Assembly: GCF_054482595.1 (NCBI RefSeq)
Contig: NZ_CM137008.1
DNA length: 64,000 bases
Strand: one strand, 5' to 3'
Part shown: positions 1 through 48,136 of the stretch, piece after piece
Layout of the letters: each line of letters begins with the position of its first letter
Position numbering within the stretch: the stretch's first letter is position 1
Made by a program: the position numbers and the translations under genes
Notes under the pieces: model-generated
Told to the model about the DNA's origin: nothing
Database searches by the model: none
What the model saw: the letters and a program-made list of their open reading frames with translations, nothing else

Positions 1-2940
1 GGAGGCGTGTTAGTCGATGAGAACAATAGCGCAGCAGGCTATGGAGATGGTCCTTCCTCTGCGGCGGGTGGCTTTATGTATCTCGGCTTAAGTGAAGTTA
101 CCTTTGATATTGCCGACGGAAAAACGCTGGTTATTGGCAATACAGAGAATGACGGAGCTGTTGACTCTATTGCTGGTACCGGGTTAATCACCAAAACAGG
201 TTCCGGCGATCTGGTACTTAATGCAGATAACAATGACTTTACTGGTGAGATGCAGATTGAAAACGGTGAAGTTATCCTGGGCCGCAGCAACTCCCTGATG
301 AATGTCGGCGATACTCATTGCCAGGACGATCCGCAAGACTGCTACGGTCTGACGATAGGGAGTATTGATAAGTACCAGAATCAGGCAGAGCTAAATGTTG
401 GCTCCACCCAACAAACTTTTGTGCACTCATTGACGGGCTTTCAGAATGGTACTTTAAATATCGATGCTGGTGGCAATGTTACTGTTAATGAAGGCAGTTT
501 TGCTGGCACCATCGAAGGTGCTGGTCAGCTCACCATTGCGCAAAACGGCAGCTATGTGCTGGCGGGAGCGTCGTCGATGGCGCTAACCGGCGATATAGTG
601 GTGGATGCTGGTGCGGTGCTTTCGCTGGAAGGCGACGCGGCAGATCTTGCCGCTCTCCAGGACGATCCGCAGTCGATCGTTTTAAACGGCGGTGTGCTCG
701 ATCTCTCTGATTTCTCCACCTGGCAGAGCGGTACATCATACAAAGATGGCCTTGAAGTCAGCGGCAGCAGCGGAACGGTTATCGGCAGTCAGGATGTGGT
801 AGATCTTGCAGGCGGAAACGATATGCATATCGGCGGTGACGGGAAAGATGGCGTCTACGTGGTGATCGATGCGGGTGACGGGCAGGTCCGCCTGGCAAAT
901 GACAATCAATACCTCGGCACAACGCAAATCGCCTCCGGTACGCTGATGGTGAGCGACAACTCGCAGCTTGGAGATACCCATTACAACCGCCAGGTTATCT
1001 TTACCGATAATCAACAAGAAAGCGTGATGGAGATTACTGCCAATGTCGATACTCGCTCTACAACGACTGAGCATGGGCGTGATATTGAAATGCGCGCCGA
1101 CGGTGAAGTGGCAGTTGATGCGGGGGTAGACACGCAGTGGGGCGCACTGATGGCTGACAGCAGCGGGCAACATCAGGATGAGGGTAGCACATTGACGAAA
1201 ACGGGGGCGGGTACACTGGAGCTGACCGCCAGCGGTACAACGCAGTCAGCGGTGAGAGTAGAAGAGGGCACGCTGCAAGGTGATGTTGCGGATATCTTCC
1301 CTTATGCTTCGTCGCTATGGGTCGGTGACGGGGCAACGTTCGTTACTGGCGCGGATCAGGATATTCAGTCAATTGATGCTACTTCCAGCGGCACTATCGA
1401 CATCAGCAATGGTACGGTTTTGCGCCTGACCGGGCAGGATACTTCCGTCGACCTTGATGCCTCACTGTTTAACGGCGATGGTACGCTGGTGAATGCCACC
1501 GATGGCGTGACATTGACAGGTGAGCTTAATACCAACCTTGAAACTGACAGCCTGACTTATCTTTCCGACGTAACAGTTAATGGCAATCTGACCAATACGA
1601 CCGGTGCGGTCAGCCTGCAAAATGGCGTCGCTGGCGATACGCTGACGGTAAACGGTGATTACACCGGCGGCGGTACGTTACTGTTCGACAGCGAATTAAA
1701 CGGCGATGACTCAGCAAGCGACCAGTTGGTGTTGAACGGTAATACTGCTGGCAACACAACTGTGGTGGTTAACTCCATTACAGGGATTGGTGAGCCGACA
1801 TCGACAGGCATTAAAGTGGTTGATTTCGCAGCTGATCCCACGCAGTTTCAAAACAATGCGCAGTTCAGTCTGGCAGGCAGCGGCTACGTCAACATGGGAG
1901 CGTATGACTACACGCTGGTGGAAGATAACAACGACTGGTATCTGCGATCGCAAGAAGTAACGCCGCCATCGCCACCTGATCCAGACCCGGACCCAACCCC
2001 CGATCCTGACCCAACACCCGATCCAATCCCCGCTTACCAGCCGGTGTTGAATGCCAAAGTTGGCGGTTATCTCAATAACCTGCGGGCGGCAAATCAGGCG
2101 TTTATGATGGAGCGACGCGATCACGCTGGTGGCGATGGTCAGACGCTGAATTTACGTGTTATCGGCGGAGATTATCATTACACAGCGGCAGGGCAACTGG
2201 CTCAGCATGAAGACACTTCTACGGTGCAGCTTAGCGGTGACCTGTTTAGGGGGCGCTGGGGCACGGATGGCGAGTGGATGCTTGGGATTGTTGGTGGCTA
2301 CAGCGATAACCAGGGCGACAGCCGCTCGAGTATGACCGGAACTCGCGCCGATAACCAGAACCACGGTTATGCCGTTGGGCTAACCTCAAGCTGGTTTCAG
2401 CACGGTAATCAGAAGCAGGGGGCCTGGCTGGATAACTGGTTGCAGTACGCGTGGTTTAGCAATGATGTTTCTGAACATGAAGATGGCGTGGATCATTACC
2501 ATTCGTCGGGGATTATCGCCTCGCTGGAAGCGGGGTATCAGTGGTTACCGGGGCGTGGTGTGGTGATTGAACCGCAGGCGCAGGTGATTTATCAGGGCGT
2601 GCAGCAGGATGATTTTACCGCCGCTAACCGTGCGCGCGTGTCACAATCGCAGGGTGATGATATTCAGACGCGGCTGGGTTTACACAGCGAATGGCGTACC
2701 GCTGTTCATGTCATACCAACATTAGATCTGAATTATTATCACGATCCCCATTCGACGGAAATTGAAGAGGATGGCAGCACTATCAGTGACGATGCGGTGA
2801 AGCAACGGGGTGAAATAAAAGTGGGAGTCACGGGCAATATCAGTCAGCGAGTGTCCCTGCGCGGCAGCGTGGCGTGGCAGAAAGGGAGTGATGATTTTGC
2901 CCAGACGGCAGGGTTTTTGTCGATGACGGTGAAATGGTAA
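1..2940 (+). CDS. yfaL: AIDA-type autotransporter adhesin YfaL, C-terminal ~977 aa (5' end outside window)
   Basis: Long ORF in frame from window start; Gly/Thr/Asn-rich passenger repeats, PDPDPTPDPDP linker, C-terminal beta-barrel-like domain ending in W; synteny next to ubiG/gyrA. Confidence 0.85.
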   Translation, partial: GGVLVDENNSAAGYGDGPSSAAGGFMYLGLSEVTFDIADGKTLVIGNTENDGAVDSIAGTGLITKTGSGDLVLNADNNDFTGEMQIENGEVILGRSNSLMNVGDTHCQDDPQDCYGLTIGSIDKYQNQAELNVGSTQQTFVHSLTGFQNGTLNIDAGGNVTVNEGSFAGTIEGAGQLTIAQNGSYVLAGASSMALTGDIVVDAGAVLSLEGDAADLAALQDDPQSIVLNGGVLDLSDFSTWQSGTSYKDGLEVSGSSGTVIGSQDVVDLAGGNDMHIGGDGKDGVYVVIDAGDGQVRLANDNQYLGTTQIASGTLMVSDNSQLGDTHYNRQVIFTDNQQESVMEITANVDTRSTTTEHGRDIEMRADGEVAVDAGVDTQWGALMADSSGQHQDEGSTLTKTGAGTLELTASGTTQSAVRVEEGTLQGDVADIFPYASSLWVGDGATFVTGADQDIQSIDATSSGTIDISNGTVLRLTGQDTSVDLDASLFNGDGTLVNATDGVTLTGELNTNLETDSLTYLSDVTVNGNLTNTTGAVSLQNGVAGDTLTVNGDYTGGGTLLFDSELNGDDSASDQLVLNGNTAGNTTVVVNSITGIGEPTSTGIKVVDFAADPTQFQNNAQFSLAGSGYVNMGAYDYTLVEDNNDWYLRSQEVTPPSPPDPDPDPTPDPDPTPDPIPAYQPVLNAKVGGYLNNLRAANQAFMMERRDHAGGDGQTLNLRVIGGDYHYTAAGQLAQHEDTSTVQLSGDLFRGRWGTDGEWMLGIVGGYSDNQGDSRSSMTGTRADNQNHGYAVGLTSSWFQHGNQKQGAWLDNWLQYAWFSNDVSEHEDGVDHYHSSGIIASLEAGYQWLPGRGVVIEPQAQVIYQGVQQDDFTAANRARVSQSQGDDIQTRLGLHSEWRTAVHVIPTLDLNYYHDPHSTEIEEDGSTISDDAVKQRGEIKVGVTGNISQRVSLRGSVAWQKGSDDFAQTAGFLSMTVKW

Positions 2941-2949
2941 TCGCTGTCT

Positions 2950-3075
2950 GACCATCACTATTGCCGGATGCGGCGTAAACGCCTTATCTGGCCTACGGAG
3001 AGCATTTGTAGGCCTGATAAGACGCGGCAAGCGTCGCATCAGGCATTGGCGCGGTTGCCGGATGAATCCAAACAA
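2950..3075. repeat. REP/BIME palindromic units (GCCGGATGCGGCGTAAACGCCTTATC-type)
   Basis: Characteristic REP consensus read in the yfaL-ubiG intergenic. Confidence 0.8.
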
Positions 3076-3080
3076 CAACC

Positions 3081-3803
3081 TCACTTATTCTGCGTGTGCA
3101 GCATATAGTTCACATCCACGCCGGGGCCGAGTTTAAAAGTATTAGTGATCGGGTTGTAATGTAGCCCGGTTATATGTCGCTCTTTAAGGCTTGTCTGATC
3201 TACCCAGCCAAGCAGCTCTGCCGGTTTAATAAACTTCTTCACATCATGCGTGCCTTTGGGCACCATGCGCAAAATATATTCCGCGCCAACCACCGCCATC
3301 AGCCATGACTTGCCGTTGCGGTTAAGCGTCGAGAAAAAGACATCGCCGCCCGGTTTCACCAGTTGCGCACAGGCTCTGACCACTGACTGCGGATCAGGGA
3401 CGTGCTCCAGCATCTCCATGCAGGTCACCACATCATACTGCCCGGCATGTTTTGCCGCGTGCTCTTCCACGGTTTCCTGCACGTAATCCACCTGAATGCC
3501 GCTTTCCAGCGCGTGCAGCTTTGCCACCTGCAATGGCTCAAAGCCCATATCCAGACCGGTCACCGTCGCGCCTTCGCGCGCCATACTCTCGGCCAGAATG
3601 CCGCCGCCACAACCGACATCGAGCACCTTTTTGCCAAATAAACCGCCAGCACGCTCGGCAATATAGCCCAGACGCAGCGGGTTAATGCGGTGCAGCGGTT
3701 TGAACTCACCTTCCAGATCCCACCAGCGGGAGGCGACGGCTTCAAATTTAGCGATCTCTTCGTGGTCTACGTTATGGTTTACCGGCGATTTTTCGGCATT
3801 CAT
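3081..3803 (-). CDS. ubiG: Ubiquinone biosynthesis O-methyltransferase UbiG (240 aa from MNAEKSP)
   Basis: Translation matches UbiG, SAM-binding VLDVGCGGG motif; ORF-track N-terminal extension trimmed to MNAEK start. Confidence 0.93.
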
Positions 3804-3949
3804 TGGCACTTCTACTCCGTAATTGGCAAGACAAACGAGTATATCAGGCATTGGATGTGAATAAAGCGTATAGGTTTACCTCAATCTGCGCGGCTGTGTT
3901 ATAATTTGCGACCTTTGAATCCGGGATACAGTAGAGGGATAGCGGTTAG

Positions 3950-6577
3950 ATGAGCGACCTTGCGAGAGAAATTACACCGGTCAACATTGAGGAAGAGCTG
4001 AAGAGCTCCTATCTGGATTATGCGATGTCGGTCATTGTTGGCCGTGCGCTGCCAGATGTCCGAGATGGCCTGAAGCCGGTACACCGTCGCGTACTTTACG
4101 CCATGAACGTACTAGGCAATGACTGGAACAAAGCCTATAAAAAATCTGCCCGTGTCGTTGGTGACGTAATCGGTAAATACCATCCCCATGGTGACTTGGC
4201 GGTTTATAACACGATCGTCCGTATGGCGCAGCCATTCTCGCTGCGTTACATGCTGGTAGACGGTCAGGGTAACTTCGGTTCCATCGACGGCGACTCTGCG
4301 GCGGCAATGCGTTATACGGAAATCCGTCTGGCGAAAATTGCCCATGAACTGATGGCCGATCTCGAAAAAGAGACGGTCGATTTCGTTGATAACTATGACG
4401 GCACGGAAAAAATTCCCGACGTCATGCCAACCAAAATTCCTAACCTGCTGGTGAACGGTTCTTCCGGTATCGCCGTAGGTATGGCAACCAACATCCCGCC
4501 GCACAACCTGACGGAAGTCATCAATGGTTGTCTGGCGTATATCGATGATGAGGACATCAGCATTGAAGGGCTGATGGAACACATTCCGGGGCCAGATTTC
4601 CCGACGGCGGCAATCATCAACGGTCGTCGCGGTATCGAAGAAGCTTACCGTACCGGTCGCGGCAAGGTATATATCCGCGCCCGTGCTGAAGTGGAAGTTG
4701 ACGCCAAAACCGGACGTGAAACCATTATCGTCCACGAAATTCCGTATCAGGTGAACAAAGCGCGCCTGATCGAGAAGATTGCGGAACTGGTAAAAGAAAA
4801 ACGCGTGGAAGGCATCAGCGCGCTGCGTGACGAGTCTGACAAAGACGGTATGCGCATCGTGATTGAAGTGAAACGCGATGCGGTCGGTGAAGTGGTACTC
4901 AACAACCTCTACTCCCAGACCCAGTTGCAGGTTTCCTTCGGTATCAACATGGTGGCATTGCACCATGGTCAGCCGAAGATCATGAACCTGAAAGACATCA
5001 TCGCTGCGTTTGTTCGTCACCGCCGCGAAGTAGTGACCCGTCGTACTATTTTCGAACTGCGTAAAGCTCGCGACCGTGCGCATATCCTTGAAGCATTAGC
5101 CGTGGCGCTGGCGAACATCGACCCGATCATCGAACTGATCCGTCATGCGCCTACGCCTGCAGAAGCGAAAACCGCGCTGGTTGCTAATCCGTGGCAGCTG
5201 GGCAACGTTGCCGCGATGCTGGAACGTGCTGGCGACGATGCTGCGCGTCCGGAATGGCTGGAGCCAGAGTTCGGCGTGCGTGATGGTCTGTACTACCTGA
5301 CCGAACAGCAAGCTCAGGCGATTCTGGATCTGCGTTTGCAGAAACTGACCGGCCTTGAGCACGAAAAACTGCTCGACGAATACAAAGAGCTGCTGGATCA
5401 GATCGCGGAACTGTTGCGTATTCTTGGTAGCGCCGATCGTCTGATGGAAGTGATCCGTGAAGAGCTGGAGCTAGTTCGTGAACAGTTCGGTGACAAACGT
5501 CGTACTGAAATCACCGCCAACAGCGCAGACATCAACCTGGAAGATCTGATCACCCAGGAAGATGTGGTCGTGACGCTCTCTCACCAGGGCTACGTTAAAT
5601 ATCAGCCGCTTTCTGAATACGAAGCGCAGCGTCGTGGCGGGAAAGGTAAATCTGCCGCACGTATTAAAGAAGAAGACTTTATCGACCGACTGCTGGTGGC
5701 GAACACGCACGACCATATTCTGTGCTTCTCCAGCCGTGGTCGCGTCTATTCGATGAAAGTTTACCAGTTGCCGGAGGCCACTCGTGGCGCGCGCGGTCGT
5801 CCGATCGTCAACCTGCTGCCGCTGGAGCAGGACGAACGTATCACCGCGATCCTGCCGGTGACCGAGTTTGAAGAAGGAGTGAAAGTCTTCATGGCGACCG
5901 CTAACGGTACTGTGAAGAAAACCGTCCTCACCGAATTCAACCGTCTGCGTACCGCCGGTAAAGTGGCGATCAAACTGGTTGACGGCGATGAGCTGATCGG
6001 CGTTGATCTGACCAGTGGCGAAGATGAAGTAATGCTGTTCTCCGCCGAAGGTAAAGTGGTGCGCTTTAAAGAGTCTTCCGTCCGTGCGATGGGCTGCAAC
6101 ACCACCGGTGTGCGCGGTATCCGTTTAGGCGAAGGCGATAAAGTGGTCTCTCTGATCGTGCCTCGTGGCGATGGCGCAATCCTCACCGCAACGCAGAACG
6201 GTTATGGTAAACGTACCGCAGTGGCGGAATACCCAACCAAGTCGCGTGCGACGAAAGGGGTTATCTCCATCAAGGTTACCGAACGTAACGGTTTAGTGGT
6301 TGGCGCGGTGCAGGTAGATGACTGCGACCAGATCATGATGATCACCGATGCCGGTACGCTGGTACGTACTCGCGTTTCGGAAATCAGCATCGTGGGCCGT
6401 AACACCCAGGGCGTGATCCTCATCCGTACTGCGGAAGATGAAAACGTAGTGGGTCTGCAACGTGTTGCTGAACCGGTTGACGAGGAAGATCTGGATACCA
6501 TCGACGGCAGTGCCGCGGAAGGGGACGATGAAATCGCTCCGGAAGTGGACGTTGACGACGAGCCAGAAGAAGAATAA
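3950..6577 (+). CDS. gyrA: DNA gyrase subunit A
   Basis: 875 aa; N-terminal [51 protein letters not shown] region, acidic C-terminal tail. Confidence 0.98.
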
Positions 6578-6594
6578 TTTTACTTCTTCATGCC

Positions 6595-6619
6595 AAAAGG
6601 GAGCTATCTCCCTTGTTTG
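6595..6619 (+). terminator. Rho-independent terminator after gyrA
   Basis: GGGAG-CTAT-CTCCC hairpin followed by TTGTTTG. Confidence 0.6.
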
Positions 6620-6725
6620 AATTGAAAAGTCCAGGCTGCAAAGTCTGGGCTTTTGTCGTATTAGGGCGCGGTAAAGTTTGGCTGTGCCCGTAAAAAATGG
6701 CTGGCTATACACAAGGAATGTGGCA

Positions 6726-13572
<6,847 letters not shown>

Positions 13573-15222
13573 GTGAACTGGCGCAGAATCGTCTGGCTAT
13601 TGGCGTTGGTTACTCTGCCAACGCTTGCGGAGGAGACGCCGTTACAACTGGCACTGCGCGGTGCGCAGCACGATCAACTGTATCAGCTGTCGTCATCAGG
13701 CGTGACCAAAGCCTCGACATTACCTGACTCGCTCACCACGCCGTTAGGGAGTTTGTGGAAACTGTATGTTTACGCCTGGCTGGAGGATACCCATCAACCG
13801 GAGCAGCCCTACCAGTGTCGCGGAAACTCCCCGGAAGAGGTTTATTGTTGTCAGGCTGGGGAGAGCATAACGCGCGATACCGCGCTGGTACGTTCCTGTG
13901 GGCTCTATTTTGCGCCGCAGCGGTTGCATATTGGCGCAGATGTGTGGGGGCAATACTGGCAACAGCGTCAGGCACCTGCGTGGTTAGCGTCTCTTACTAC
14001 GCTGAAGCCAGAAACCTCGGTAACGGTTAAATCGCTGCTTGATTCATTAGCGACGTTACCTGCGCAAAACAAAGCTCAGGAAGTCTTACTGGATGTGGTG
14101 CTGGACGAGGCGAAAATCGGTGTCGCATCCATGCTCGGTAGTCGGGTACGGGTGAAAACCTGGAGCTGGTTTGCCGATGATAAACAGGAAATCCGTCAGG
14201 GTGGTTTTGCTGGCTGGTTAACCGATGGTACACCGCTGTGGGTTACTGGCAGTGGCACCAGCAAAACGGTACTGACCCGTTATGCGACGGTGCTTAATCG
14301 GGTTTTGCCAGTGCCGACACAAGTTGCCAGTGGGCAATGTGTAGAGGTGGAGCTATTTGCGCGCTATCCGCTGAAGAAAATCACAGCGGAAAAGAGTACG
14401 ACGGCAGTAAAACCCGGCGTACTTAATGGGCGCTATCGTGTGACCTTTACCAATGGTAACCACATTACGTTTGTCAGCCACGGTGAGACGACTTTACTGA
14501 ACGAAAAGGGCAAACTGAAATTGCAGTCGCATCTCGATCGTGAAGAGTACGTTGCCAGAGTTCTGGATCGCGAGGCGAAAAGTACGCCACCTGAGGCAGC
14601 GAAAGCCATGACCGTGGCGATACGCACTTTTTTACAGCAAAACGCCAATCGGGAAGGCGATTGCCTGACCATCCCCGACAGCAGCGCCACGCAGCGTGTT
14701 TCTGCTTCGCCAGCTACCACGGGGGCGCGAACGATGACCGCCTGGACGCAGGATCTCATCTATGCGGGCGATCCGGTTCATTATCACGGCAGTCGCGCTA
14801 CCGAAGGGACGCTTTCCTGGCGGCAAGCCATGGCCCAGGCGGGGCAGGGAGATCGTTACGACCAGATACTCGCGTTTGCTTATCCCGACAACAGCCTTAG
14901 CCGCTGGGGAGCGCCACGCTCAACCTGTCAGTTATTACCCAAAGCGAAAGCCTGGCTGGCGAAAAAAATGCCGCAGTGGCGGCGTATATTACAAGGCGAG
15001 ACGGGGTACAACGAACCAGACGTGTTTGCGGTCTGTCGTTTAGTCTCAGGTTTCCCCTATACCGATCGGCAGCAGAAACGGCTGTTTATTCGTAACTTCT
15101 TTACGCTTCAGGATCGGCTGGATTTAACCCATGAGTATCTGCACCTGGCCTTTGATGGTTATCCCACCGGGCTTGATGAGAACTATATCGAAACGCTGAC
15201 CCGACAATTATTAATGGACTAA
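13573..15222 (+). CDS. yfaQ: YfaQ (DUF2300 family), secreted
   Basis: Adjacent to yfaS stop; GTG start; N-terminal signal peptide. Confidence 0.8.
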   Translation: MNWRRIVWLLALVTLPTLAEETPLQLALRGAQHDQLYQLSSSGVTKASTLPDSLTTPLGSLWKLYVYAWLEDTHQPEQPYQCRGNSPEEVYCCQAGESITRDTALVRSCGLYFAPQRLHIGADVWGQYWQQRQAPAWLASLTTLKPETSVTVKSLLDSLATLPAQNKAQEVLLDVVLDEAKIGVASMLGSRVRVKTWSWFADDKQEIRQGGFAGWLTDGTPLWVTGSGTSKTVLTRYATVLNRVLPVPTQVASGQCVEVELFARYPLKKITAEKSTTAVKPGVLNGRYRVTFTNGNHITFVSHGETTLLNEKGKLKLQSHLDREEYVARVLDREAKSTPPEAAKAMTVAIRTFLQQNANREGDCLTIPDSSATQRVSASPATTGARTMTAWTQDLIYAGDPVHYHGSRATEGTLSWRQAMAQAGQGDRYDQILAFAYPDNSLSRWGAPRSTCQLLPKAKAWLAKKMPQWRRILQGETGYNEPDVFAVCRLVSGFPYTDRQQKRLFIRNFFTLQDRLDLTHEYLHLAFDGYPTGLDENYIETLTRQLLMD

Positions 15223-15226
15223 TGCT

Positions 15227-16003
15227 ATGCGAAAGATTTTTCTTCCGTTGTTACTGGTGGCGCTTTCGCCTGTCGCTCACAGTGAAGGTGTGCAGGAAGT
15301 CGAGATTGACGCACCGCTCTCAGGCTGGCATCCGGCAGAGGGCGAAGATGCCAGTTTTTCACAATCGATCAATTACCCGGCGTCGTCCGTCAACATGGCA
15401 GATGATCAAAATATCTCAGCGCAGATCCACGGCAAAATAAAGAATTATGCTGCGGCGGGTAAAGTTCAGCAGGGCCGGCTGGTGGTCAACGGTGCCAGTA
15501 TGCCGCAGAGAATTGAATCCGATGGTTCATTTGCACGCCCTTATATTTTCACTGAAGGCAGCAACAGCGTGCAGGTCATCAGCCCGGATGGGCAAAGCCG
15601 ACAAAAAATGCAGTTTTACTCAACGCCGGGTACAGGAACGATTCGTGCACGTTTACGGCTGGTTCTCTCGTGGGATACGGACAATACCGATCTCGATCTC
15701 CATGTTGTCACGCCCGATGGCGAACACGCCTGGTACGGTAACACGGTGCTGAAAAACAGTGGTGCACTGGATATGGATGTCACGACGGGGTACGGACCCG
15801 AGATTTTCGCCATGCCAGCGCCAGTTCACGGACGCTATCAGGTGTATATCAACTACTATGGTGGGCGCAGCGAAACGGAATTAACCACCGCCCAACTGAC
15901 GCTGATCACCGATGAAGGATCGGTCAATGAGAAACAGGAAACATTTATTGTACCGATGCGTAATGCTGGCGAGCTGACGCTGGTGAAAAGTTTTGACTGG
16001 TGA
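15227..16003 (+). CDS. yfaP: YfaP (DUF2135 family), secreted
   Basis: Signal peptide MRKIFLPLLLVALSPVAHS; synteny. Confidence 0.8.
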   Translation: MRKIFLPLLLVALSPVAHSEGVQEVEIDAPLSGWHPAEGEDASFSQSINYPASSVNMADDQNISAQIHGKIKNYAAAGKVQQGRLVVNGASMPQRIESDGSFARPYIFTEGSNSVQVISPDGQSRQKMQFYSTPGTGTIRARLRLVLSWDTDNTDLDLHVVTPDGEHAWYGNTVLKNSGALDMDVTTGYGPEIFAMPAPVHGRYQVYINYYGGRSETELTTAQLTLITDEGSVNEKQETFIVPMRNAGELTLVKSFDW

Positions 16004-16277
16004 TCCATCCCTTCACACAACCTGGCTCTTTCTTTTTTCAGATAAGACTGCTGGGCGATTTGCCGACGCCAGGATATAACCATTAACAATCGTCGGCAGA
16101 TTGGTCATTTCTTATTTTTCGTACTGAGAACTGTCCATTTACTCCGGCTTTCCTGGTTAAGGCAATGGTTTCTAAGCGATACGCATTATTGCAATGGTGA
16201 CAGAACATTGCGGTAACACGCTTTTACCGCTACCTTAACCACACTCCATCGGTCACCTGAGGCGGAGCTTCGCCCCT

Positions 16278-19212
<2,935 letters not shown>

Positions 19213-45544: not shown

Positions 45545-48136
45545 ATGCATCAATCTGGTTCTGTTTCTCTTTGTCGTTCCGCAATATCTGTTCTGGTGGC
45601 TACAGCGTTATATTCACCCATAGCATTGGCATCAACAGTTGAGTATGGTGAGACAGTTGATGGTGTTGTCCTGGAAAAAGATATCCAGCTGGTTTATGGG
45701 ACCGCCAATAATACGAAAATCAATCCTGGCGGAGAACAGCATATTAAAGAATTTGGTATAAGTAGTAATACTGAAATTAACGGCGGGTATCAGTACATTG
45801 AAATGAATGGCACCGCAGAATACTCCGTATTAAATGATGGTTATCAAATTGTTCAAATGGGTGGCGCGGCAAACCAGACTACCCTCAATAATGGTGTGCT
45901 ACAGGTTTATGGCGCAGCGAATGATCCCACGATTAAAGGCGGGCGCTTAATCGTTGAAAAAGATGGGATTACCGTCCTTGCCGCTATCGAAAAGGGAGGA
46001 TTACTGGAGGTTAAAGAGGGGGGATTAGCGATTGCGGTAGATCAGAAAGCAGGCGGTGCTATTAAAGCAACCACGCGGGTCATGGAGGTATTCGGAACAA
46101 ACCGTCTCGGTCAGTTCGATATCAAGAATGGAATTGCAAACAATATGCTGTTGGAAAACGGCGGAAGTTTGCGAGTTGAAGAAAATGACTTCGCTTATAA
46201 TACTACTGTAGATAGTGGCGGCTTACTGGAGGTTATGGATGGCGGGACTGCAACTGGCGTTGATAAAAAAGCAGGCGGAAAATTAATTGTCTCAACGAAT
46301 GCGCTGGAAGTGAGTGGTACAAACAGTAAAGGCCAATTTAGTATAAAAGATGGTGTGTCAAAAAATTATGAACTGGATGATGGTTCCGGGCTTATTGTTA
46401 TGGAGGACACGCAGGCCATTGACACTATCCTTGATGAGCATGCCACTATGCAATCGCTGGGAAAGGATACTGGTACGAGAGTGCAGGCAAATGCGGTATA
46501 TGATCTCGGTCGATCAGATCAGAATGGAAGTATAACGTATTCCTCTAAAGCCATCTCTGAAAATATGGTTATCAACAATGGCCGCGCTAACGTCTGGGCT
46601 GGCACAATGGTTAACGTTTCAGTCAGAGGGAATGATGGCATTCTTGAGGTCATGAAGCCGCAAATAAATTATGCACCCGCAATGTTGGTGGGTAAGGTAG
46701 TGGTTTCTGAGGGCGCTTCTTTTAGAACGCATGGTGCCGTGGATACCAGCAAAGCGGACGTTTCGCTCGAAAATAGCGTATGGACCATCATTGCCGATAT
46801 CACTACGACGAACCAAAACACCCTCCTCAACTTAGCCAACCTTGCGATGTCTGACGCAAATGTGATTATGATGGATGAGCCAGTGACTCGTTCATCAGTG
46901 ACGGCAAGTGCGGAAAATTTCATTACGTTGACCACCAATACCCTGTCGGGAAACGGCAATTTTTATATGCGTACCGATATGGCTAATCATCAGAGCGATC
47001 AGCTCAACGTCACCGGTCAGGCAACAGGTGATTTCAAAATATTCGTGACGGACACCGGTGCCAGCCCGGCAGCAGGAGATAGCCTTACACTGGTAACAAC
47101 GGGCGGCGGTGATGCTGCATTTACGTTGGGCAATGCCGGAGGCGTTGTTGATATCGGTACGTATGAATATACCTTGCTGGATAATGGTAACCATAGCTGG
47201 AGTCTGGCAGAGAATCGCGCGCAAATTACCCCTTCAACCACTGATGTGCTGAATATGGCGGCCGCACAACCGCTGGTATTTGATGCAGAACTGGACACCG
47301 TGCGTGAGCGTCTTGGTAGCGTAAAAGGCGTTAGTTACGATACGGCGATGTGGAGTTCGGCAATTAACACCCGCAACAACGTGACCACTGATGCGGGAGC
47401 TGGTTTTGAGCAAACATTGACGGGCCTGACGCTCGGTATCGATAGCCGTTTCTCCCGTGAAGAAAGCAGCACAATTCGCGGCTTGTTCTTTGGTTACTCT
47501 CATTCTGATATTGGTTTTGATCGCGGCGGAAAAGGTAATATCGATAGCTATACCCTGGGGGCTTATGCCGGTTGGGAGCATCAGAACGGTGCCTATGTTG
47601 ATGGGGTGGTGAAAGTTGACCGTTTTGCCAACACCATCCATGGCAAGATGAGTAATGGGACAACAGCGTTTGGCGATTACAATAGTAACGGCGCGGGTGC
47701 TCATGTTGAGAGCGGGTTCCGTTGGGTTGACGGATTGTGGAGTGTTAGACCCTATCTGGCCTTTACCGGCTTTACCACAGATGGTCAGGACTACACGTTA
47801 TCAAACGGCATGCGCGCGGACGTGGGAAATACCCGGATATTACGCGCTGAAGCGGGAACGGCGGTAAGCTATCACATGGACCTGCAAAACGGTACGACGC
47901 TGGAACCCTGGCTGAAAGCCGCCGTACGTCAGGAATACGCCGATTCTAACCAGGTGAAAGTTAATGACGATGGCAAATTTAATAATGATGTGGCTGGAAC
48001 CCGTGGCGTTTATCAGGCTGGGATAAGGTCATCGTTTACCCCGACGTTAAGCGGTCATTTGTCAGTCAGCTATGGCAATGGCGCAGGGGTAGAATCGCCG
48101 TGGAATACTCAGGCGGGTGTGGTCTGGACGTTCTGA
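45545..48136 (+). CDS. yejO: Autotransporter YejO, apparently intact
   Basis: 863 aa, signal peptide, passenger repeats, C-terminal beta-barrel ending WTF. Confidence 0.9.
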   Translation: MHQSGSVSLCRSAISVLVATALYSPIALASTVEYGETVDGVVLEKDIQLVYGTANNTKINPGGEQHIKEFGISSNTEINGGYQYIEMNGTAEYSVLNDGYQIVQMGGAANQTTLNNGVLQVYGAANDPTIKGGRLIVEKDGITVLAAIEKGGLLEVKEGGLAIAVDQKAGGAIKATTRVMEVFGTNRLGQFDIKNGIANNMLLENGGSLRVEENDFAYNTTVDSGGLLEVMDGGTATGVDKKAGGKLIVSTNALEVSGTNSKGQFSIKDGVSKNYELDDGSGLIVMEDTQAIDTILDEHATMQSLGKDTGTRVQANAVYDLGRSDQNGSITYSSKAISENMVINNGRANVWAGTMVNVSVRGNDGILEVMKPQINYAPAMLVGKVVVSEGASFRTHGAVDTSKADVSLENSVWTIIADITTTNQNTLLNLANLAMSDANVIMMDEPVTRSSVTASAENFITLTTNTLSGNGNFYMRTDMANHQSDQLNVTGQATGDFKIFVTDTGASPAAGDSLTLVTTGGGDAAFTLGNAGGVVDIGTYEYTLLDNGNHSWSLAENRAQITPSTTDVLNMAAAQPLVFDAELDTVRERLGSVKGVSYDTAMWSSAINTRNNVTTDAGAGFEQTLTGLTLGIDSRFSREESSTIRGLFFGYSHSDIGFDRGGKGNIDSYTLGAYAGWEHQNGAYVDGVVKVDRFANTIHGKMSNGTTAFGDYNSNGAGAHVESGFRWVDGLWSVRPYLAFTGFTTDGQDYTLSNGMRADVGNTRILRAEAGTAVSYHMDLQNGTTLEPWLKAAVRQEYADSNQVKVNDDGKFNNDVAGTRGVYQAGIRSSFTPTLSGHLSVSYGNGAGVESPWNTQAGVVWTF

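Follow-up and report, generated by a model that had tools for sequence, protein, structure and literature searches.

The yfaP-rcsC spacer of an Escherichia coli strain as a probable deletion scar of the atoSC-atoDAEB locus

Gene content of the window and differences from K-12

The window analysed here is a 64,000-nt stretch of contig NZ_CM137008.1 (NCBI RefSeq assembly GCF_054482595.1). It runs in the orientation opposite to the K-12 map, with the gene order yfaL, ubiG, gyrA, yfaA, yfaT, yfaS, yfaQ, yfaP, rcsC, rcsB, rcsD, ompC. An earlier note on this DNA had claimed that the strain differs from K-12 at ato, yfaS and yejO, and comparison with the K-12 annotation together with alignment confirmed the difference at all three loci. 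The genes concerned are as follows.

8968-13572, + strand: intact yfaS, alpha-2-macroglobulin family (ORF, domains, K-12 comparison)
15227-16003, + strand: yfaP CDS, DUF2135 protein, left flank of the spacer (ORF list; Pfam DUF2135)
16278-19127, + strand: rcsC CDS, TTG start, 949 aa, right flank of the spacer (ORF list, sequence)
45545-48136, + strand: intact yejO autotransporter, 863 aa (ORF; annotated intact in XH990)

The yfaP gene, the last of the yfaA-T-S-Q-P cluster, ends with a TGA stop codon at 16001-16003, and the TTG start of rcsC lies at 16278, which leaves the gap of 274 bp that had been reported. The two genes are adjacent and co-oriented, and no ato gene lies between them. Their products are close to those of K-12, with 99.2% amino acid identity for YfaP and 99.7% for RcsC. 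The window aligns to K-12 without a gap over 12,635 nt from ubiG to the yfaP stop codon (98.0% identity), and the alignment resumes at ~16155 and continues through rcsC-rcsB-rcsD-ompC. The junction sequence is 100% identical to that of E. coli strain XH990. In a tblastn search of the 64-kb window, no Ato homologue was detected beyond generic kinase/regulator paralogy, and the window contains no LAA-like island.

In K-12 MG1655 the yfaP-rcsC interval holds the 7.37-kb ato locus (b2219-b2224). The earlier note had put ato between rcsC and yfaP, with a K-12 adjacency of yfaP and rcsC named as the finding that would overturn it; the MG1655 annotation places atoS, atoC, atoD, atoA, atoE and atoB in the interval, and no such adjacency exists in K-12.

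The yfaS gene of K-12 (b4500) is annotated as a pseudogene, as the earlier note had stated, with a premature TGA at codon 1368 (K-12 locus L001, 20300-20302). The window has TGG at this codon (13069-13071), and its only stop lies at the end of the ORF. The two copies otherwise differ by 20 amino acid replacements and no indel, and the inactivation of K-12 yfaS is thus due to a single nonsense change and involves neither an indel nor an insertion. The window YfaS has the MG2, A2M_BRD (A2M bait region), A2M and bMG10 domains of an alpha-2-macroglobulin, and the K-12 stop falls upstream of bMG10. A 41-mer containing the TGA was found in 364 of 5,426 complete E. coli genomes, and all of those among the matches listed are K-12 laboratory derivatives; intact yfaS is therefore the norm. 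The yejO gene is full length in the window, as claimed, whereas that of K-12 is split by IS5K, and its product has AIDA and pertactin passenger domains followed by a C-terminal autotransporter beta-barrel domain. At yfaS and yejO it is K-12 that is exceptional, whereas at ato either state is frequent.

The yfaA-T-S-Q-P (alpha-2-macroglobulin) block is conserved in Superficieibacter, Citrobacter youngae and Enterobacillus. Lysobacterales, Pseudoduganella and Desulfobulbus have the cluster too, and Azoarcus loci contain a yfaP homologue. Beyond the genus Escherichia, the block lies beside neither rcsC nor ato (loci L006, L007, L008, L009, L011-L019).

Composition of the yfaP-rcsC spacer

The spacer can be divided into the following parts.

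16004-16277, no strand assigned: the complete yfaP-rcsC spacer, exactly 274 bp, interpreted below as the ato deletion scar
16004-16028, no strand assigned: junction filler beside the yfaP stop codon, with no detectable K-12 homologue
16029-16108, - strand: decayed atoS 5' relic, aligning to nt 67-147 of K-12 atoS (~codons 23-49)
16109-16202, - strand: decayed atoS start and atoS-proximal half of the rcsC-atoS divergent promoter region
16203-16277, + strand: rcsC-proximal 75 bp, the 5' region of rcsC, found in both haplotypes

By megablast, 16005 to ~16198 has no K-12 counterpart, and it was at first taken for unique sequence; this was overturned by a short-word search, in which a 20-nt exact match and a 10-nt match emerged on one diagonal within the first 150 nt of K-12 atoS. 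The local alignment between the relic and atoS covers 80 nt and is near-ungapped, and its score (z = 17.5) was reached by 0 of 1,000 dinucleotide shuffles. Over 16034-16118, 61 of 85 alignment columns are identical to K-12 atoS (72%). The relic is collinear with K-12 atoS, in the position and orientation that synteny beside rcsC predicts. A residual ORF of 31 codons (16013-16108) reads MTNLPTIVNGYILASANRPAVLSEKRKSQVV* and aligns to AtoS ..VPTLTIGYIVETEGRSAVLSEKEKKLSAVV.. Among 18,950 NCBIfam models, the only match to this translation is AtoS (NF008468, positions 23-49), with an E-value of 0.03 and 12.7 bits that would be marginal on its own. The relic does not encode a functional AtoS, as its 31 codons and 12.7 bits compare with ~608 aa, including kinase domains, and a curated cut-off of 646 bits; K-12 AtoS scores 997 bits against the same model. 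In some genomes the NCBI PGAP annotation of the scar includes a minus-strand 'hypothetical protein' of 41 aa (DETEC-P61, L030 409-534; window 16013-16138). This is the atoS relic ORF and not a real gene.

Relative to atoS, the relic frame has been damaged by truncation, by a 52-nt internal gap and by a 1-nt indel. Its differences from K-12 are spread over codon positions 1, 2 and 3 as 9/26, 8/26 and 7/26, whereas functional K-12 atoS and a divergent orthologue (locus L027, assembly GCA_028883695.1) differ at 2/26, 0/26 and 10/26; the even spread in the relic therefore indicates neutral decay. The IGYIVETEGRSA motif, conserved in most of the AtoS N-terminal fragments retrieved, is altered in the relic, whereas the most divergent of these fragments have just mild variants of it, such as IGYVVETEGRAA. 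Where K-12 and L027 differ, the relic sides six times with K-12, twice with L027 and four times with neither, and descent from an Escherichia-type atoS is therefore indicated. Two other sources for the relic were considered. Origin from a foreign orthologue is ruled out by the flat codon-position pattern and the 6:2 sharing with K-12, and origin from a second extant E. coli ato type was dropped, as complete E. coli genomes contain no divergent full-length atoS and none has the L027 type. A search with AtoS residues 1-150 returned short fragments alone (≤237 aa), which supplied the N-terminal diversity and a stub in E. albertii, and no intact relative of the relic was found by it.

On the rcsC side of the relic, 16109-16202 carries 52-nt and 11-nt deletions relative to K-12, with which it shares ~55% identity, compared with 84% for the spacer of E. 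whittamii. Of 65 sites at which K-12 and L027 agree, it has a different base at 27. Identity to K-12 switches sharply at 16202/16203, and 16203-16277 matches K-12 at 75/75 positions, Escherichia sp. MOD1-EC7003 at 74/75 and E. whittamii at 72/75. In K-12 (L001 9954-10025) and L027 (~7910-7985), ~72 nt of the atoS-proximal half of the rcsC-atoS spacer are identical, while the genes flanking this identity are saturated at four-fold sites. This suggests that the element may be a strongly constrained atoS regulatory sequence, and it is the very part that is decayed in the scar.

At the other end, the junction filler is hypervariable between scar copies. The sequence at 16005-16033 is 38% identical to K-12 and 52% identical to the E. 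whittamii scar, and the filler of E. coli BS-04 differs yet again. A possible TTAATCA microhomology, shared by atoS codons 58-60 and the yfaP stop region, was inspected by eye; the filler has diverged too far to back it. Because homology in the outer parts (16004-16028 and much of 16109-16202) is weak, the deletion cannot be given exact endpoints.

Origin, distribution and age of the spacer

Whether the junction marks an ancestral state or a deletion scar had been left open in the earlier note. The spacer holds a decayed atoS 5' relic and ato lies ancestrally beside rcsC, which together with independent ato deletions elsewhere in Escherichia identifies it as a scar; we consider it very likely that a deletion removed almost the whole of atoSC-atoDAEB from a lineage that originally had ato beside rcsC. 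Evidence for the ancestral arrangement comes from L027, an enterobacterial genome, which has the order ompC-rcsDBC-atoSCDAEB-gyrA at a four-fold-site divergence from K-12 of ~0.8-1.7 in rcsDBC and atoSC. Synteny at such divergence means that the position of ato beside rcsC is much older than E. coli. The deletion would have begun near atoS codon 55 and ended no more than a few bases from the stop codon of yfaP. What remained at 16029-16202 (- strand) would be a short, frameshifted and heavily mutated atoS 5' stub with its former promoter side, adjoining the 75 bp before rcsC that are unchanged in both haplotypes. The resulting allele would have arisen once, and would be old, common in E. coli and common to E. 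whittamii.

The L027 segment (1-16705) lacks the yfa cluster, and its gyrA and atoB are close to those of K-12 (four-fold-site distance K4 0.10 and 0.25). In a metagenome contig, L028 (1-16705), the same divergent rcs-ato segment is joined, within atoB, to an E. coli-type yfaP (K4 0.016). This arrangement reflects either a mosaic, which would be striking, or chimeric assembly, and in both L027 and L028 atoS is split into ORFs of 234 and 370 aa.

Two further, independent ato deletions are found in other Escherichia. In E. albertii B156, rcsC is followed by a 96-aa ORF with 61 K-12-type AtoS codons and then by yfaP, and in MOD1-EC7003, 90 atoS codons are fused to the 3' end of atoB. Counting the scar, the genus has lost ato from the rcsC-yfaP site on at least three separate occasions. 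In the YfaP scan of genome contigs, E. fergusonii, E. marmotae and E. ruysiae were not represented, and the contig of the E. albertii type strain stops 64 bp past yfaP.

An empty ancestral site, at which the original yfaP-rcsC adjacency was kept while ato was inserted later in K-12-type lineages, would agree with the short spacer of E. whittamii, with the abrupt haplotype switch at both ends and with the demonstrable mobility of ato in E. coli, where it occurs on the pheV-integrated LAA island of O91:H21 (PMC5539235). We nevertheless regard it as highly improbable, because the spacer contains the atoS relic and the decayed atoS promoter side and the outgroups are not uniformly empty: rcsC-ato synteny is seen at the much greater divergence of L027, and partial ato deletions at the same site in E. 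albertii and MOD1-EC7003. Nor are there signs of insertion, as no integrase, transposase or IS end is annotated around K-12 ato, no integrase, IS end or target duplication lies at the junction and no target duplication flanks K-12 ato, and the only repeats in 15800-16500 are short and at chance level. The argument depends on the atoS resemblance, which might be thought accidental or due to another sensor-kinase paralogue, given the short region, the protein E-value of just 0.03 and the ~55% identity outside the core. The probability of this is close to negligible in view of the score against shuffled sequences, the match at the one position and orientation that synteny predicts, the recovery of AtoS alone among all models at the corresponding N-terminal coordinates, and the preference for K-12 over the divergent orthologue at differing sites.

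We also give little credence to conservation of the spacer for a newly acquired function, be it that of a small protein, of a small RNA or of novel regulatory DNA for rcsC. Such a function could account for the relic core being just ~8% diverged between E. coli and E. whittamii, compared with 30-40% at flanking four-fold sites, and would suit the PGAP ORF call in some genomes and a position immediately before rcsC in which no terminator follows yfaP. It is made unlikely by the state of the relic ORF, which is broken by an in-frame TAG in E. whittamii and partly deleted in BS-04. The flat codon-position pattern is also against it, as are the spacer's lack of any Rfam match at E ≤ 1 and of a sigma-70-like promoter in a promoter scan, and K-12 rcsC works with just the 75 bp in common.

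The distribution of the scar was determined in 5,426 complete E. coli genomes, of which 1,537 share the yfaP-rcsC adjacency, so that it is not an effect of chance or assembly. The 198 bp at 16005-16202 were matched in 1,541 genomes, with ≥95% identity in 1,540 of them, and were covered to at least 80% in 1,536, essentially all at ≥95% identity; the other 3,885 complete genomes gave no match. A full atoS, in every case ≥95% identical to that of K-12, is present in 3,924 genomes. Since the scar and full-atoS counts together exceed the genome total, ~38 genomes must have both. Carriers of the scar include O157:H7, O145:H28, O103, O104:H4 and O111:H8, which belong to phylogroups E and B1. K-12 (phylogroup A) has ato, and so does UTI89 (B2) (PMC10986536). 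The scars of XH990, O157:H7, O104:H4 and DETEC-P61 align base for base with that of the window, without gaps and with ~1-4% differences, and the allele therefore has a single origin.

Some genomes depart from these two states. E. coli BS-04 (L020 5988-6186) has a derived scar of 199 bp, shortened by further small deletions that flank the relic core on either side. In E. coli E69 (L010 7912-10419), a GTDB representative, K4 relative to K-12 is 0.53 for rcsC, 0.10 for yfaP and 0.05-0.31 for the ato genes; rcsC seems to have deep haplotypes and the interval seems to be a recombination mosaic. O91:H21 strain FWSEC0008 (L021 9030-16280) has a complete atoSC-atoDAEB (K4 0.01-0.12 relative to K-12) beside a tyrosine integrase on a pheV-integrated island, which is the LAA pathogenicity island of LEE-negative STEC (PMC5539235, PMC6174562, PMC9729726), and keeps the ato scar at the native site. 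The island therefore restores a pathway that the lineage had lost.

The age of the scar is harder to judge. At sites where K-12 and L027 agree, the window differs at 18 of 66 coding positions (~27%) and, as stated above, at 42% of promoter-side positions, and 35 of 45 derived states are also present in the E. whittamii scar. The scar lineage has thus accumulated ~0.3 substitutions per site (over ~130 sites). This value is at or above the per-lineage distance for E. coli and E. albertii at four-fold sites (total K4 ~0.5 in the yfa genes), and it does not sit easily with the idea that a simple deletion took place within E. coli. By these sequence comparisons the age of the relic appears close to that of the genus Escherichia, yet E. 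coli is still polymorphic for it. Several observations are at odds with great age: the window flanks differ from K-12 by K4 values of just 0.04-0.05, and the E. coli and E. whittamii scars are 8-16% diverged, less than their flanking four-fold sites. The E. albertii stub (L024 6001-6291) is also awkward, as it differs from K-12 at 1 of 29 four-fold sites, compared with 38-39% in E. albertii rcsC and yfaP. Either both alleles have long been exchanged among Escherichia species, or the scar went through a mutation burst or evolves unusually fast.

Two forms of exchange can be set against the simple descent of the scar. In one, the scar is the older resident state, of about genus age, and the K-12-type ato now present in most E. 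coli returned to its site when homologous recombination brought it back from a putative donor, a relative in which it had never been lost; since then ato has travelled between Escherichia species. The spacer would still be a deletion scar in this account, but the allele that counts as 'native' to E. coli is reversed. The amount of change in the scar and its sharing with E. whittamii are in its favour, as are the presence of ato on a pathogenicity island in strains that retain the scar and the sharp identity switches at 16004 and 16203 within flanks that are otherwise 98% identical. The low four-fold divergence of the E. albertii stub also fits and suggests a recent interspecies exchange of K-12-type ato before its deletion there, although low divergence in 5' atoS is weak evidence of transfer because the region is unusually conserved even at synonymous sites. 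The sample of sites is tiny and allows no proper clock, and a mutation burst at the deletion or a locally raised mutation rate would mimic age, so that we think this course of events quite possible but lean against it. In the other, put forward tentatively and as rather unlikely, a genus-old scar and ato have been kept as a long-lived presence/absence polymorphism, with alleles recombined between species through the rcsC and yfaP flanks and ato also carried on the LAA island. If true, such a history would mean that selection on short-chain fatty-acid catabolism had been alternating or niche-dependent over long periods.

Consequences and comparison with known ato loci

Unless ato is present elsewhere in the genome, the strain lacks the AtoS/AtoC sensor-regulator, the AtoDA CoA-transferase, the AtoE transporter and the AtoB thiolase. 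It should then be without an acetoacetate-inducible route for acetoacetate and short-chain fatty acids (for background on this route and on ato, see PMC9329746, PMC6174562). From the absence of ato, and with the same proviso, we infer that the strain would not grow on acetoacetate, butyrate or other short-chain fatty acids by the ato route. The bidirectional terminator between atoB and yfaP of K-12 (AAAACACCCGATAGCGAAAGTTATCGGGTGTTTT; L001 17295-17367) is absent from the scar, and no + strand terminator was found in the spacer between yfaP and rcsC. As neither such a terminator nor a promoter was detected there, read-through of the yfa operon into rcsC is predicted to be possible.

Variable ato content has been documented in meat-plant E. 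coli (PMC9602453), in Shigella (PMC9496106) and for the LAA island (PMC5539235), and the present case is thus ordinary strain variation. In the literature searched, no published description of the relic was found, while ato variability and LAA-borne ato were. What is added here is that the gap is the scar of a single deletion, in which an atoS stub can still be recognised, that ato has been lost at the site at least three times in the genus, and that the scar looks surprisingly old. At the native site, AtoSC and the acetoacetate/short-chain fatty-acid pathway are missing from about one in four sequenced E. coli, O157:H7 and the main non-O157 Shiga-toxin lineages among them. This has consequences for metabolic models, for the use of K-12 as a reference and for the reading of ato on the LAA island. 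The scar findings open no new mechanism or long-standing question, and the one modest curiosity is the apparent antiquity of the scar and its sharing across species.

The scar allele and the K-12 ato locus occupy the same interval between the same flanks (K4 0.04 for yfaP and 0.05 for rcsC), with complete identity over the 75 bp upstream of rcsC and a relic homologous to the first ~55 atoS codons and the promoter side. They differ in that all 7.37 kb of functional genes are gone from the scar, together with the atoB/yfaP bidirectional terminator. The same deletion allele is present in O157:H7, O104:H4, O103, O111, O145 and ~1,500 other genomes, at 95-100% identity over 198 bp; the E. coli copies differ from the window by 1-4% point differences alone, except for the further shortening in BS-04.

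The closest counterpart outside E. coli is that of E. whittamii (cryptic clade II). It has a 276-bp spacer with the same 52-nt and 11-nt internal gaps and has 35 of 45 derived substitutions in common with the window, but its relic and spacer are 8-16% diverged, its leftmost 25-30 nt are ~48% diverged, and its relic ORF contains an in-frame TAG. E. albertii B156 and MOD1-EC7003 resemble the window in having lost ato from the same interval and in keeping an atoS 5' stub beside rcsC. Unlike the relic, their stubs are of K-12 type (97% and 91% amino acid identity, respectively), undecayed and longer (61 and 90 codons), and their deletion endpoints differ from that of the window, MOD1-EC7003 keeping the atoB 3' end and REP-like sequence. 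The ato copy of the LAA island is placed differently from the native locus, at pheV beside an integrase and not at rcsC; like the scar locus, it is an instance of variable ato content, by which scar-bearing strains can regain ato.
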